From assembly GCA_964016885.1 (NCBI GenBank), contig OZ024747.1, forward strand, positions 47,306,001 to 47,370,000: DNA of 64,000 bases, in the 5' to 3' direction. Under the pieces are notes generated by a model, which saw only the letters and a program-made list of their open reading frames with translations, was not told the DNA's origin and made no database searches. Shown here piece after piece: positions 946-45,200 of this stretch (the stretch's first letter is position 1; each line of letters starts with the position of its first letter). The position numbers were made by a program, and so were the translations under genes. Source of the DNA: Eledone cirrhosa (Eukaryota).

Positions 946-1207
946 CGGGGTAACAAATAATAGTTATATGCAGTCCACTTAGGTGTAGTCCAGTTATGGT
1001 ACTCCGGGTAGTGGATGATATCAACGCTTGGATGATATCAACGCTTGATGATATCAACTGATTATAATTTTGTATTGGCGATCGAGTAACGTGAAAACAA
1101 GCGAATAGCGATCTCTAGACCTACCAGTTCAGAGAAACAATTGTCAGCAATGAGATTAAAAACCTTTTTTGTATAGCAAACTATGTCAATCTTCTTTCCT
1201 GATTTAT
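946..1207. mobile_element. Inverted composite of repeat family P1 ends inside (TA)n
   Basis: 946-1035 is the reverse complement of ~15890-15972, and 1063-1206 matches 15661-15802 directly. Both ends run into (TA)n. Confidence 0.65.
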
Positions 1208-1440
1208 ATATATATATATATATATTATGTGAGTGTATAAAGATATATACATGTATTATATGTGAGTGCATATAAATATATATTATGTGCGTGTGTATAT
1301 ATATATATATATATATATATATATATATATATATATATATCATGTGTGTGTGTATATATATGTGTGTGTGTGTGTGTGTGTGTGTGTGTGTGTGTGTGTG
1401 TGTGTGTGTGTGTGTGTGTGTAAATATATATATATATATT

Positions 1441-1582
1441 AGATAAGGTGTGGTAAAATACCAGGTGGACCATAACCCCCCAGAGTACTCGATACTTGTG
1501 GTAGTAGAGTGAGTAATATAAAAATATTCAGGACCACCCCGACGGCTGAGCTCCGGCTGTTTCGACAGCTAGATCCGCCGAA
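1441..1582 (-). mobile_element. Diverged P2-family end fragment in (TA)n
   Basis: Shares GTGGTAA..ACCAGGTGGACCATAAC and CCCCGACGGCTGAGCTC..GTTTCGAC with 4164-4295. A shorter relative lies at ~22006-22066. Confidence 0.6.
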
Positions 1583-1930
1583 TATATATGTATATGTATA
1601 TATATATATATCTATATAAATTATTAACACAGATTAAAAGCTTAAGCAAAGAATTTCTGCTTTCATTCTAAAGTATGAGACTTCTGAATTCATATTAGAA
1701 TCTCTTCGTTTGTTTTGGATGTTGGGTGAGGTTTAATTACAATTCAGTAAAGAGACGACTTCTTTTTTCAATAGTATTGTGTGTTCCTCTTCAGTTATAT
1801 GGCTTTAACTTGTCTCTATAACCTTTTATAAATTAGAGAAGAGTGGTGTGGGTCAAACTGGTGTCTGACCCAACGAAAGGTATGAACTGAAACATAGGGC
1901 ATTGATTCCCAACAAAATAATTCCCAACAA

Positions 1931-2123
1931 AATAATTGTTTCTATGTTAGGCACAAGGCCAGCAATTACTCCAGTGCATTACTGGTACTTTATTTTATCG
2001 ACCCCCGTAAGGATGAAAGGCAAAGTTAACCTTGGCGGGATTTGAACTCAGAAAGGCATGGGCCGTAACTCTATACGTCAAAGCATCGCGTCCGACCTTC
2101 TACCGATACTGCCAATCCACCGC
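1931..2123 (-). mobile_element. tRNA-derived SINE, family S1, full length
   Basis: Minus strand has A-box TGGCAGTATCGG, B-box GAGTTCAAATCC and core GCCTTTCATCCTTACGGGGGTCGATAAAATAAAGTACCAG. Nine copies occur in the window. Confidence 0.9.
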
Positions 2124-40445: not shown

Positions 40446-41107
40446 GCTTAAATGGAATGAGAATAAGAAGAAAGTAAGAACGGGGGGGGTTCCTCATCAG
40501 TTTTATACTGGGGGTCTCGGATATTTCAACGCTTTAAAGACAAGATATCTACCCCCAGAACGTTCAATTACTGGGTAAGTTATTGGGAAAACGCAGGAGG
40601 GAGGGAAGGAAAATAGAAGGGAAAAGGGAAGAAAAAAACAGCGAAAAAAGTAACAACCCGACCAATGTGGCGAGCAACTTAAGGTAACAAAATCCAAGAT
40701 CACAGCCATAACAGAACTTAAGTTCAGGAGCGTGAGGGCGAATGAAAAGACACGTCTGACCCCAGCGAGTGTAAGTGAGAAAAGGACTGCTAGAGGGTCA
40801 GGCGAGGGAAACAAAGAGATAGCTGGCAGAGAGAGGATGAGTGAAAGTGATAGGGAGAAAGGGAGAGGAAGAAAGAGGGGTAAGAGTAGATAGTAACGAA
40901 ATAGGTAGGTAGAAGGAGAGAGAAGACTGGTCACAGCCAAACATGATAAAATATATGGAGAAGAAGATTGGCTGTGTAGTTGCTAGTTAAGGTAGGCTTA
41001 AAATGGAATGAGAATAAGAAGAAAGTAAGACGGGGACGGGAGAGTTTTCCCCATCAGTTGTCTACTGGGCGTCTCGGATATTTCAACGTTTTAAAGACAT
41101 GATATCT
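40446..41107. repeat. Unit with ~105-bp direct terminal repeats between microsatellites
   Basis: 40446-40549 is similar to 40997-41107. Confidence 0.65.
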
Positions 41108-41142
41108 TTTACACACACACACACAGATATTATATATATATA

Positions 41143-44100
41143 ATATAAGTTAAAACAATGAAATAAAAAATCAAGTCATTAGAGATATACTTCACTGCTT
41201 TACGATCGTTTCTAGATGATGATAATACATTGTATCTATACTCAGTTATTGATCTATATAAGTTTACAAACTATCAGAGAGAGAGAATATTTACTTACAT
41301 GCATATAACCAGCTGTTATCAAAAGCAATAATAATTTTACTCAGAATTAGTATCATGTCCATATTTGGAGGTAGTTGAAGAACTAACGAATCAAATTGTT
41401 TTTTTCATATGATGTTAAGATGAAAAGTAATACACTTTTGTTGAGGTCATGACCCTTTGAAAGGAATGGTTGAAAGGTGTTAGTAGAAATGGCATAAAAA
41501 TCTATTAGGAAGGGGATTGTCAAACTGATAGTTGAATGTATCTTGTATAGTGAATTTAAAAGGAATGTCAAAATAAATGGTGATTAGTGTTGTATTGAGT
41601 TTTAAATTAATGCTATGGCTAGGAAAGATAGTATATTAAAAGATGAAAATTATAATGAGATAATGAGATATTGTAATGCGATAATATACAACTTAACCAA
41701 CACAATATAGTACGGTGTGGTAAATTGCACTCAGTATAATATAACTTATTATACGCTCTAAAATATTACTAAGTACGTTTATGCATAAACTATCAAACTC
41801 AGATAAGTACATGTTGGCATAGTTAAAACACATAAATTTCATAGTCTACAAAGTGCATATATTCACACTACATATAGAGAGAGGTACAGTTATATTGATA
41901 TATAACCAAAATATACATACGTGTAAATAGATGCAAACCTAAATACACATCCACACGCATGCATATAATCATATATATACATATCCATACATATCTATAT
42001 CCACACATACACATCTATACCCCCATATATACATATACATATACACATACATACATATATATATATATATATATATACACACACACACTCATACATACAT
42101 ACATATATACATGTACATACATATACACACACACACATACATACATACATACATACATACATACATACATATATACATTCACATATACACATATATATAT
42201 ATATATATATATATATATATATATATATATATATATATATACATATACATATACAACACACACACATACACATATATATATACACACTTGTGTGAGTATA
42301 TGTACACTCCTCTTACATGTGCACATGCATACACACCCATATATATATATATATATATATATATATATATATACATATATATATATACATATATATACAT
42401 ATACATACACATACATATACATACATATACATACACACATACATACACAATCATATACATATATACACATATACATATACATAAACATATATACATATAT
42501 ATATATATATATATATATATATATATATATATATATATATATATATATATATATATATACACACACACACACAAATATATACACACATAAATATATTTCC
42601 ATATCATACATAGATGTTTATTTTTATTCATGCAATTACGGGAGGTTGTGTATCTTGTTGCCTTTAGTCATTAACGCATAAATCTAAGGAAGCTAAAACA
42701 TTAAAAGGCAAAAATAAGCATGAAAGCATATAATTAGGGGAAAGAGGTACTAATAAATGTTATTCCATACGGAATTATAGTGAGTTGCTATTTAGAATAT
42801 TTAATTAGGTTTATAGTATTTAAATGTTTTTCGTATACGGTGATTACAGACTATGATCAATTCCTGTCTTTTATTTAATAAATCGTCCTTAGATTTAGTG
42901 ATTTCCAAGATCTCTCCTGAACATAATCTGCATTACCTCCTGTTTCCAAGATATGGAGTTTTTTGTAGAATGGTGTTCCACGATAACTTAAAATCTATTT
43001 TTTTCTTTTTATAATTATTTACCGCTTCAGCTAAAGATGTGGTGTAAGCTAGTTTAGTATTGTTGAACTACAAGAGTGTGCGTAAAATCTTTTCTTAAAT
43101 GTGTTTAATGTAGATCCTATATATGTTTTGTTGGAGTCTGTAGTAGACACAGTACATTTATATATTACCTTATTAATCAAACAGTTTACATTTAAGGGGC
43201 AAATGCTTCTATTTCTGCAATTACAGCCATACGTAAGATGGTTTTGGGGGGTGCCTATACTATTCTCATTTATCCTTGAGCTATTCCTATTGTAATTAAT
43301 GATAGCAGGAGAATGAAGGTTGCTTTGTGGGTGGTTTGGTGCTAGCGTTGTATTATAATTTTGTGTTCTGTTGTTTTTGTGTTGGTGATTTGGGTGGTTG
43401 TGCTTTCCAGGTTGAAGGATTGTATTATTTGTCTTTTTAAAAGGCGCAGTCCTATTTAAATTATGTTGCGGTGGTGTAATCATATTATTTTTAAGTTTAT
43501 AAATGTTGTAGCTGCTTATTTTTTGTTTGAGATTGTTTGATGTAGAGTATGAGAATTTAAGAGTATATTTGTTAAATATTTGGTGGTATCTGTGGTTTGG
43601 TGGAAAATGTTTATGTAGTATTTCAAAGAATTTTTTGGGGATTATGTAGTATTTCAAAGAATGTTTTGGGGATATGTGTGTTATGTATGTGTATGTATAT
43701 GTATATATATGTATGTATATATATGTATATACATATATATATATATATATATATATATATATATATATATATATATATATATATATATATATATATATAT
43801 ATATGTATATATATGGGTGTGTATGTATGTGTATATATATATGTATGTGAGTGTGTATGTGTGTGTATGTGTATGTGTATATATATATATATGTATATAT
43901 ATATATATATATATATATATATATATATATATATATATATATATATATATATACATACATATATATATATATATATATATGTGTGTGTGTGTGTGTGTGT
44001 GTGTGTATTTGTGTGTGTGTATATGTGTATGTATATATGTATGTATGTGTGTGTATATGTATGTACATGTATATATGTATGTATGTATGAGTGTGTGTGT

Positions 44101-45200
44101 ATATATATATATATATATATATATATATATATATATATATATATATATATGTATATGTATATATGTGGGTATAGATGTCTATGTGTGGATATAGATATGT
44201 ATGGATATGTATATATATGATTATATGCATGCGTGTGGATGTGTATTTAGGTTTGCATCTATTTGCACGTATGTATATTTTGGTTATATATCAATATAAC
44301 TGTACCTCTCTCTATATGTAGTGTGAATATATGCACTTTGTAGACTATGAAATTTATGTGTTTTAACTATGCCAACATGTACTTATCTGAGTTTGATAGT
44401 TTATGCATAAACGTACTTAGTAATATTTTAGAGCGTATAATAAGTTATATTATACTGAGTGCAATTTACCACACCGTACTATATTGTGTTGGTTAAGTTG
44501 TATATTATCGCATTACTATATCTCATTATCTTATTATAATTTTCATCTTTTAATATACTATCTTTCCTAGCCATAACATTAATTTAAAACTCAATACAAC
44601 ACTAATCACCATTTATTTTGACATTCCTTTTAAATCCACTATACAAGATACATTCAACTATCAGTTTGACAATCCCCTTCCTTCCTAATAGATGTTTATG
44701 CCATTTCTACTAACACCTTCAACCATTCCTTTCAAAGGGTCATGACCTCAACAAAAGTGTATTACTTTTCATCTTAACACCATATGAAAAAAAAACAATT
44801 TGATTCGTTAGTTCTTCAACTACCTCCAAATATGGACATGATACTAACTCTGAATAAAATTATTATTGAATAAAATTATTATTGCTTTTGAAAACAGCTG
44901 GTGATATGCATGTAAGTAAATATTCTCTCTATCTGATAGTTTGTAAACTTACATAGATCAATAACTGAGTATAGATACAATGCATTATCACCATCTAGAA
45001 ACGATCGTAAAGCAGTGAAGTATATCTCTAATGACTTGATTTTTTATTTCATTGTTTTAACTTATATCATGACTCTGTTTTCCTTTTAATGTTTTATTGT
45101 TTTCTGATATTTATCTTAACCTACAACATTTTCAACATATGGATTACATTGAGTTCTTCATACCGAATAGACCCCACAACTTACTGTGGATACCTCTGTG
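41143..45200. mobile_element. PLE insertion (family P7) with ~1.4-kb inverted 3' regions
   Basis: 41143-42000 is the reverse complement of ~44190-45067, and the adjacent microsatellite blocks also mirror. A GIY-YIG fragment lies in the spacer, with a ~130-bp extra tail at the right end. Confidence 0.85.
42830..43675 (-). pseudogene. PLE C-terminal region with GIY-YIG endonuclease
   Basis: [55 protein letters not shown], then frameshifted TTSLAE..W..CRLC..E. Confidence 0.85.

Follow-up and report, generated by a model that had tools for sequence, protein, structure and literature searches.

An inverted, 5'-truncated copy with a one-sided tail has already been described for PLEs (Arkhipova 2013, PMC3846280; Craig 2021, PMC8557442), and for the origin of these inverted ends and one-sided tails the available literature proposes self-priming, EN resolution, or "additional steps yet to be validated". 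Naiads are described as being without canonical HHRs (PMC8557442). For another PLE, Poseidon_Ac, a predicted dimer, both strands were cut and extended in vitro, with two internal start sites that bracket the tail; reverse transcription started without homology to the target and the start site was the same for both strands (Frangieh 2024, PMC11167929). In L1, twin priming yields junction gaps and overlaps (bioRxiv 10.1101/2024.08.27.596794).

We analysed a 64-kb stretch of DNA, probably from an octopus, hereafter the window, for which a preliminary description had claimed a recurrent inverted design with one long and one short outward-facing 3' end in seven distinct families (P1 to P7). This design was borne out, all nine listed loci of the window being head-to-head pairs with unequal outward ends. 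The pairs and their relatives are:

946..1031, minus strand (inferred polarity): P1 long-ended arm, 86 nt, 95% to 15887-15972, with the same end adjoining (TA)n
1032..1056, no strand: P1 junction, a tandem re-copy of the long-arm end seen in the sequence
1057..1207, plus strand: P1 short-ended arm, 97% to 15654-15801
1441..1571, minus strand: P2-related solo copy with a long end, z = 35 against P2
4164..4353: P2 pair, long arm 4164-4298 (minus) and short arm 4302-4353 (plus), arms 55/55 identical
4488..4714, plus strand: P6 subfamily, solo long end
9835..12142, plus strand: P6 5'-truncated coding copy with a long end, HHR core 11890
12248..12266, minus strand: P3 long-ended arm, ~19 nt only, matching 35709-35727
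12264..12420, plus strand: P3 short-ended arm, HHR core 12328, 94% to 35804-35940
12502..12854, minus strand: P4 long arm, HHR core 12693, 253/266 against the short arm
12859..13120, plus strand: P4 short arm, HHR core 13021, 253/266 against the long arm
15654..15972, plus strand: P1 solo reference copy with a long end, by sequence match, with no ORF link
16877..17199, minus strand: P6 solo copy with an internal deletion and a short end
18458..18657: P2 pair, long arm 18458-18595 (minus) and short arm 18600-18657 (plus), arms 59/61
22007..22062, minus strand: P2-related short end, candidate long-end partner 22185-22250 (plus)
30743..30932: P2 pair, long arm 30743-30876 (minus) and short arm 30879-30932 (plus), arms 55/57
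31678..32234: P5 pair, long arm 31678-31857 (minus) and short arm 32104-32234 (plus), 125/135
31858..32103: unassigned sequence in the middle of P5, between its arms
32290..32890: P6 pair, long arm 32290-32614 (minus) and short arm 32621-32890 (plus), 265/270, HHR core in both
35709..37865, minus strand: P3-family arm with a long end, HHR core 35896, Hydra-type EN 37853-37040
37862..38021, plus strand: P4-family arm with a short end, HHR core 37922, 87% to the P4 arms
41143..43672, minus strand: P7 short-ended arm, 2.5 kb, with a Hydra-type linker and EN at 43642-42837
43673..45202, plus strand: P7 long-ended arm, 1.5 kb, 878 matches over 918 columns in the non-repetitive part

The short end lies 50-168 nt before the long one (168 nt in P1, 77 in P2, 90 in P3, 91 in P4, 50 in P5, 54-60 in P6 and ~133 in P7), in agreement with the 50-170 bp announced. 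The termini, said to be fixed within a family, agree within ~2 nt in every class having more than one copy, a measure confined to such multi-copy classes, P5 and P7 being single-copy in the window. Long ends recur at 946/15972 (P1), 4164/18458/30743 (P2), 12248/35709 (P3) and 4714/12142/32290 (P6), and short ends at 4353/18657/30932 with a relative at ~22007 (P2), 13120/38021 (P4) and 16877/32890 (P6). As had been described ("usually" on the proximal side), (TA)n adjoins 17/18 outer ends, and all P3, P4 and P7 outer ends lie at it; the sole exception (1/18) is the P6 short end at 32890, which joins an 11-nt junction copy followed by a third P6 piece (32917-33387, minus strand).

An inverted-repeat seed search (spacing of at most 6 kb) returned 46 groups, 7 of which are overlapping pairs. 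Judged by eye, none of these groups in the window is an equal-ended outward-facing pair, and long+long or short+short pairs, which the preliminary description had set against its own reading, were likewise not found there. Under random site choice per end, unequal ends at 9/9 loci have p = 0.002, or 0.008 with P2 counted once; since fold-back equally predicts unequal ends, this count does not discriminate between mechanisms. The palindromes that had been claimed are present at seven of the nine loci and absent from P1 and P3, because the arms of these two do not overlap. Junctions thus show a gap in 2 pairs and an overlap in 7, and near-perfect centres (loop of at most 6 nt) occur at 5/9 loci. 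In P1, the arms leave ~80 nt of tail absent; at the P3 junction they share a 3-nt overlap (12264-12266); P7 has a ~29-nt tandem duplication at its junction, and its long-ended arm halts 1.08 kb short of the 5' limit of the other arm. In none of the 8 assignable pairs does the 5' reach of the long-ended arm exceed that of its partner by more than ~6 nt. No direct pLTR or partial tandem was seen in the P1-P7 copies, all of which are 5'-truncated.

The seven families stand as sequence families but not as seven independent lineages, since P3 and P4 have their HHR region in common (z = 5.6) and P3 and P7 their EN type. When 20 segments were each compared with all others (380 tests), P2 was strongly linked to its relative and P3 only modestly to P4; P1 and P5 resembled other families at a level close to noise. 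The 3' polarity is shown by an HHR core in P3, P4 and P6 and by an ORF in P6, in P7 and in one P3 copy (that at 35709), and is proven in four of the seven families. Thirteen HHR cores were found in the window versus 0-2 in 20 shuffles, 9 of them within P3, P4 and P6 copies; no full core was found in P1, P2, P5 and P7 copies, P7 having a variant core by eye. A scan of positions 1-46000 against Rfam gave no hammerhead family among the 150 matches listed of 270, and those listed were rejected as hairpin or microsatellite noise, under gathering scores.

P6 is the only family in which an RT is joined to a GIY-YIG; P3 (35709 copy) and P7 have an EN without RT. The P6 coding copy at 9835-12142, for which no inverted partner was found, carries the RT at 9835-11304, then a frameshifted GIY-YIG at 11283-11672. 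The best match of this ORF is an Octopus vulgaris protein (70%), and its Pfam RVT_1 and GIY-YIG scores are under the curated cut-offs. Its translation contains a CX2-5CxxC linker, a pattern present in 91/120 P6 relatives, a CCHH finger and a C-terminal EN, and P6 appears from its sequence to be a Neptune/Nematis-type PLE. Both Hydra-type EN fragments (P3 35709 copy and P7) have a CxCX5C linker before a C-terminal GIY-YIG, as do 95/150 of their relatives, and both lack the CCHH finger, with a single Cys between two core motifs by eye. Homologue searches at E 1e-5 gave no longer relatives of the two fragments; an exhaustive search recovered relatives, and RW[KP] plus DKT occur in 3/4 of those of at least 580 aa, the P3, P4 and P7 copies themselves being without RT in the window.

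The combination of this linker, a C-terminal GIY-YIG, an HHR (P3, P4) and a (TA)n target is like that of the Hydra clade, including Hydra-1_Obim (PMC8557442), and P3, P4 and P7 are probably Hydra-clade-like PLEs. Unlike Hydra-1_Obim, both EN fragments have Asn-rich linker inserts, and the 3' ends of P3, P4 and P7 differ by eye from its 3' end. The ends of P3 (30/125 nt past the HHR) and P4 (42/134 nt) fall into the same two distance classes as the Hydra-clade consensi, which end at 26-43 nt in 10/24 cases and at 81-149 nt in 11/24, the other 3/24 being at 59, 66 and 351 nt (PMC8557442). In the Penelope-13_HM consensus, a curated consensus and not a locus, the HHR is 102 nt from both ends, which are therefore equal.

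By architecture only, P1, P2 and P5 are putative PLEs. No tblastn or HMM match linked P1, P2, P4 or P5 to an ORF, an absence that says little since the copies are short, and four short motifs had no match in the available part of the Craig 2021 supplement (PMC8557442). Neither an HHR core nor an ORF was found in the P5 copy, and an Atlas search with a 101-aa minus-strand frame of P1 gave no usable match. By eye, the P1 minus strand bears a loose likeness to octopus Naiad consensi in their 5' region, which would flip the polarity of P1. P2 has a possible HHR 3' half, with 0 compensatory changes in stem III and 1 in a rival hairpin, neither beyond shuffles; the P2 pattern had 0 matches in bacterial and archaeal genomes. 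Its arms, solo copies counted, all end (8/8) ~9-20 nt upstream of one GAAA, and this common 5' stop accounts for the tight centres; the 1441-1571 solo copy is cut 5' at about the same point.

At 35709-38021, a P3 arm and a P4 arm are joined head-to-head, so that two families form one pair, with no TA run of at least 10 nt between 35708 and 38022. The P3-family arm at 35709-37865 was absent from the preliminary list.

The insertions share with EN+ PLEs the head-to-head 5'-truncated copy, the tail at a single end, palindromic junctions, microsatellite targets and, in P3, P4 and P6, an HHR near the 3' end, but their tails of 50-168 nt exceed the published 30-40 nt, and non-overlapping arms or a longer short-ended arm, both seen here, are not discussed in the available portions of Arkhipova 2013 and Craig 2021 (PMC3846280, PMC8557442). 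The long+short structure is already known; the longer tails, the P1 and P3 gaps, the P7 asymmetry, a weak TA microhomology at the short end and the mixed pair are the additions made here. As in Poseidon_Ac, two fixed internal RT starts would define the tail, and cutting and extension would involve both strands of an AT-rich DNA; Poseidon_Ac belongs to another clade and its start site has no target homology, whereas a weak TA microhomology is seen here, and the main text does not report both sites paired in one insertion (PMC11167929). The two outward 3' ends, gap or overlap junctions and joining by microcomplementarity are like those of L1 twin priming (bioRxiv 10.1101/2024.08.27.596794). In L1, however, the first site is the poly(A) and the second is spurious and variable, whereas here the second site is fixed and poly(A) is lacking, which rules out L1 elements as the identity of these insertions; furthermore, gaps dominate in L1 (66% versus 17%) and overlaps dominate here (7/9).

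The sites had also been described as AT-matching. At the short site, four of the seven families indeed show 3 nt or more of in-phase TA microhomology (3, 3, 5 and 4 nt; p = 0.005), and the summed value of 17 nt exceeds the null mean of 6.9 (p = 0.011). It falls to 1, 1 and 0 nt in P4, P5 and P7, the zero being that of P7, and longer TA runs close to the short site are left unused in P4, P5 and P6. AT-matching by itself is insufficient to select the site, and the microhomology at the short end is weak. Folding of nine 3' ends revealed neither a shared structure at the short site nor a consistently open site, its unpaired probability ranging from 0.22 to 0.76.

We consider it fairly probable that the 5'-truncated GIY-YIG PLE insertions seen here arose through twin priming from two sites that are fixed within each family. 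Twin priming reportedly goes back, for LINE-1, to Ostertag and Kazazian (2001). The element protein would nick both (TA)n strands, giving two equivalent 3' ends. One of these would prime at the distal site, which probably lies where the element meets (UA)n in a read-through RNA; the other would prime 50-170 nt upstream of it, at an internal site picked mainly by the protein-RNA complex, with TA pairing over 3-5 nt as an aid. Both RTs would travel on one RNA, the internal one ahead and the distal one behind. If the latter halted early, a gap (P1, P3) or a shorter arm (P7) could result; if it displaced the first cDNA as far as a shared stop, palindromes (P2, P4, P6) could form. The two cDNA ends would then be joined via short microhomology or slippage. 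Single-end priming would leave solo long or solo short copies. The claim of twin priming at two defined sites keeps its place as the best fit, parts of it having been shown in vitro for another PLE, but is weakened by the five of nine loci at which fold-back does equally well.

In the fold-back scheme, which we hold to be rather unlikely, priming occurs at the long end only, the cDNA or an antisense RNA folds back and self-primes, EN resolution at an AT-rich site sets the short end, which is end-joined to (TA)n, and gaps are later deletions. It has been proposed in the literature (antisense RNA in Arkhipova 2013, PMC3846280; EN resolution in Craig 2021, PMC8557442) and makes the long+short outcome automatic. 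It explains the five near-perfect centres equally well, and it fits both the near-palindromic 7-mer present at the centre of P4 and again at the junction at 37862 and the TA-centred fold-backs of flanking DNA in the window (4342-4409 and 22508-22636). On the other hand, the short-ended arms of P1, P3 and P7 hold sequence missing from the long-ended arms and are thus not producible by fold-back from a long cDNA; each would require a second deletion on the same side. Fold-back also leaves the P3/P4 pair unexplained, as well as the solo short ends (16877, possibly 22007), whose existence means that the short site needs no long arm as template; moreover, the short site acts as an RT start in vitro (PMC11167929). 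The longer tails, P1/P3 gaps, P7 asymmetry, TA microhomology and mixed pair would together favour twin priming over fold-back or self-priming; the fixed ends of the multi-copy classes, the limited 5' reach of the long-ended arms, the shared stop of the P2-type arms and the two distance classes of the Hydra-clade consensi also speak for it. Against twin priming, the three asymmetric loci, 3/3 in one direction, give p = 0.125 only and may be old palindromes that lost their centres through later deletion, the start site did not differ between strands in vitro, contrary to a strict long+short pairing, and the case consists of nine loci in one window. Further points against it are the lack of 3-nt in-phase microhomology in P4, P5 and P7, the homology-independent initiation of Poseidon_Ac, the equal ends of the Penelope-13_HM consensus, the 3/24 Hydra-clade consensi outside both distance classes, the folding result at the short site and the position of the P6 short end at 32890 away from (TA)n.

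Chance head-to-head pairs, arising from two separate insertions, or from gene conversion or DNA repair that affected fragile (TA)n tracts afterwards, are improbable. PLE ends do crowd the same TA tracts (12142-13120 and 31617-33387), two families are united at 35709-38021, and TA together with a MITE-like insert separates the 22007/22250 arms, whose partner match reaches z = 4.8 only among 380 comparisons. However, none of the nine listed junctions has a TA tract, all nine listed pairs are same-family with unequal ends, and the P2 arms share private variants at 2/2 informative sites, one in the 4164 pair and a different one in the 18458 pair, which indicates separate formation of each pair. 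An assembly or chimeric-read artefact is hardly credible: palindromes and microsatellites are known to trouble assemblies (PMC8557442) and the 4164 arms are identical, yet arms diverge by 2-8% in 6/7 overlapping pairs, same-base ends recur at separate loci, and the inversion stops at the element ends, the 150-nt outer flanks being non-inverted at 9/9 loci (scores 15-37 of 300).

Returning to twin priming, a more far-reaching version, which we put forward tentatively and find somewhat doubtful, is that PLE integration may be an obligate two-ended reaction, in which a protein dimer primes both nicked (TA)n strands at different hard-wired RNA sites, with the internal RT in front of the distal one on a single RNA or, now and then, on two RNAs that come from different families (P3/P4 pair). 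If so, programmed twin priming, and not self-priming, would be what normally leaves the tail and the inverted pLTR in PLEs across clades. If twin priming is programmed, PLEs would, unlike LINEs, make both insertion strands from RNA and would steadily supply TA-rich genomes with palindromes. To a specialist in PLEs, the structure as such would come as no surprise. With 9-11 such insertions in 64 kb, a roughly typical density, extrapolated from this one window, would mean thousands of events genome-wide, so that counts of arm geometry in young copies could separate the models.

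The window is AT-rich and dense in microsatellites. As shown by self-BLAST, pairwise alignments and a terminus table, all nine head-to-head loci of the preliminary description (P1 at 946; P2 at 4164, 18458 and 30743; P3 at 12248; P4 at 12502; P5 at 31678; P6 at 32290; P7 at 41143-45202) consist of two antiparallel arms with unequal outer ends, one long (distal) and one short (proximal). The long end lies beyond the short one by 168 nt in P1, 77 nt at all three P2 loci, 90 nt in P3, 91 nt in P4, 50 nt in P5, 54-60 nt in P6 and about 133 nt in P7. The fixation of termini within families, proposed earlier, was borne out, since every multi-copy end class agrees to within about 2 nt. 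The (TA)n flanks were found at 17 of 18 outer ends; the exception is the P6 short end at 32890, where 11 nt of its own junction are repeated and a third P6 piece follows. An inverted-repeat seed search gave 46 groups, seven of them being the listed overlapping pairs. Equal pairing (long with long, short with short) had been named as evidence against the scheme, and no such outward-facing pair was seen in the window among these groups, the remaining ones being judged by eye and the search being blind to non-overlapping arms.

The best match of the P6 reverse transcriptase (RT), at 70% along the full length, is a predicted Octopus vulgaris protein; the next matches are at 53% or below, and the source is probably an octopus genome. 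The RT is followed by a frameshifted GIY-YIG endonuclease (EN) that has CCHH residues and a linker of the CX4CxxC form. By this predicted coding content, P6 is a Penelope-like element (PLE) of Neptune or Nematis type. In the P3 copy at 35709-37865 and in the minus arm of P7, the EN has a CxCX5C linker, given as a Hydra-clade feature by Craig 2021 (PMC8557442); the linker is common to 95 of 150 relatives, and RW[KP] and DKT are present in three of the four long ones. The hammerhead region of P4 is common to P3. A hammerhead-core scan found 13 sites in the window, against 0-2 in 20 shuffles, nine of them within P3, P4 and P6; these cores establish that the outward ends of the three families are 3' ends. 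For P1, P2 and P5, searches for an ORF link returned no match, P2 has a candidate half-hammerhead, and their presumed polarity rests on the fixed ends. A 7-mer just past the short end of P1, P3 and P4 (three of its seven window occurrences) weakly favours the polarity assigned to P1; by eye, the minus strand of P1 loosely resembles the 5' regions of Naiads, which points to the opposite one. A 13-mer of the P1 short end (1192-1204, 15791-15803) is also seen by eye, possibly by chance, where the Hydra-1_Obim consensus begins at its 5' end. A P3-family 3' UTR at 1-875 (-) extends past the left window edge, its terminus lying outside view.

The arms vary in geometry. At five loci (the three P2, P4 and P6) the palindrome is near-perfect, its loop measuring at most 6 nt. 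The P5 arms overlap by 131 nt around an unassigned 246-nt middle, and the long arms of P1 and P3, only 86 and about 19 nt, stop before the short site. The short-ended arm of P7 goes 1.08 kb further 5' than its partner. In all eight assignable pairs, the long-ended arm extends 5' past the limit of the short-ended one by at most about 6 nt. Arm-to-arm identity is 55/55, 59/61 and 55/57 in P2, 253/266 in P4, 125/135 in P5, 265/270 in P6 and 878/918 in P7. At both informative P2 sites the two arms have the locus-specific variant in common, so the three P2 loci do not derive from a single palindromic master copy. The 5' stop is nearly identical in all eight P2-type arms, solos included. Solo ends are the following:

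1441, solo long end
4714, solo long end
12142, solo long end
15972, solo long end
16877, solo short end
22007, probably solo short end

In a further pair, absent from the preliminary description, a long P3 arm that carries the EN meets a P4 short arm head-to-head (35709-38021), with no TA tract between them; two RNAs could have been primed here, or an insertion could have come later, together with a deletion. The 5' truncations of the EN arms at 37853 and 43642 lie at most a few codons from one homologous position, and both Hydra-type arms have Asn-rich linker inserts. At 22007-22250, the short end of a P2-related copy faces outward, as does a possible long end; between the two lie TA and an insert of 80 nt with terminal inverted repeats (22080-22162), which we take to be MITE-like.

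We lean towards twin priming, in which both broken DNA ends start reverse transcription separately, at two fixed sites, as a single scheme for palindromic, gapped, lopsided and solo forms. Fold-back or self-priming of one cDNA, with endonuclease resolution, accounts for the five tight palindromes but requires later same-sided deletions at three loci, and appears rather unlikely. Head-to-head insertion by chance, or repair, fits poorly and is doubtful. An assembly artefact, the refutation envisaged earlier, is least credible of all, as the arms are alike but mostly non-identical (e.g. 59/61, 253/266, 878/918) and the outer flanks are not inverted. At 4342-4409, 22508-22636, 16830-16876 and 58509-58568, flanking DNA is repeated in short inverted, inward-facing form about a TA tract, suggesting fold-back repair at (TA)n breaks.

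The long end would be trivially regenerated by read-through RNA ending in (UA)n. At the short site, P1-P7 have 3, 3, 5, 1, 1, 4 and 0 nt of in-phase microhomology with (TA)n, that is, at least 3 nt in four of seven families (p = 0.005) and 17 versus 6.9 in sum (p = 0.011). The idea of AT-matching priming sites thus holds weakly in four families, but longer TA runs nearby are skipped in P4, P5 and P6, indicating that pairing aids but does not pick the short site.

The Craig supplement (PMC8557442) gives length and 3' hammerhead position for 24 Hydra-clade consensi, one row with a 5' hammerhead being excluded. The consensus ends 26-43 nt past the hammerhead in 10 of 24 and 81-149 nt past it in 11, with three outside both classes (59, 66 and 351 nt); the P3 and P4 short/long ends lie at 30/125 and 42/134 nt. 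From these distances, two end classes look clade-wide, though curators' consensus boundaries are not loci. In the same source, the symmetric Penelope-13_HM consensus counts against strict long-short pairing. In Frangieh 2024 (PMC11167929), both strands are cut and extended and two internal start sites bracket the tail; these sites are without homology to the target, and the strands are alike in start site. In the openly accessible literature covered by our search, we saw no paper applying twin priming to PLEs; one paper with both terms has them solely in its reference list. The inverted structure itself is already known; what is new here is a variant with longer tails, pairs that are gapped and arms that are asymmetric, which makes an open question countable.

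Other 3' ends that carry a hammerhead, none with a visible inverted partner, lie at 31498 (+), 45452 (-), which terminates in (CA)n and not (TA)n, and about 3290 (+), whose degenerate core was recognised by eye only. At 14628-15551, a 317-nt direct repeat (99%) with a spacer of 291 nt is bordered by a TA tract on either side; it resembles a PLE partial tandem and gave no ORF match. Remnants of decayed Hydra-like RT and EN are found at 26286-27650 (+). A young LINE forms a tandem array at 46638-57212 (-). Two APE-RT ORFs of 1153 aa in it are intact and 99.5% identical; a frame of 432 aa lies upstream, truncated copies are also present, and every copy ends at (TAGA)n. At 24101-25465 (-), another non-LTR retrotransposon is present in fragments, which give a zf-RVT match. 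A SINE-like repeat occurs as follows:

1926, 2153, 20885, 21111, 28394, 29461, 38693, 63026 and 63257, SINE-like repeat of 190 nt, about nine copies

It terminates in short (ATT)n and presumably resembles octopus tRNA-derived SINEs.
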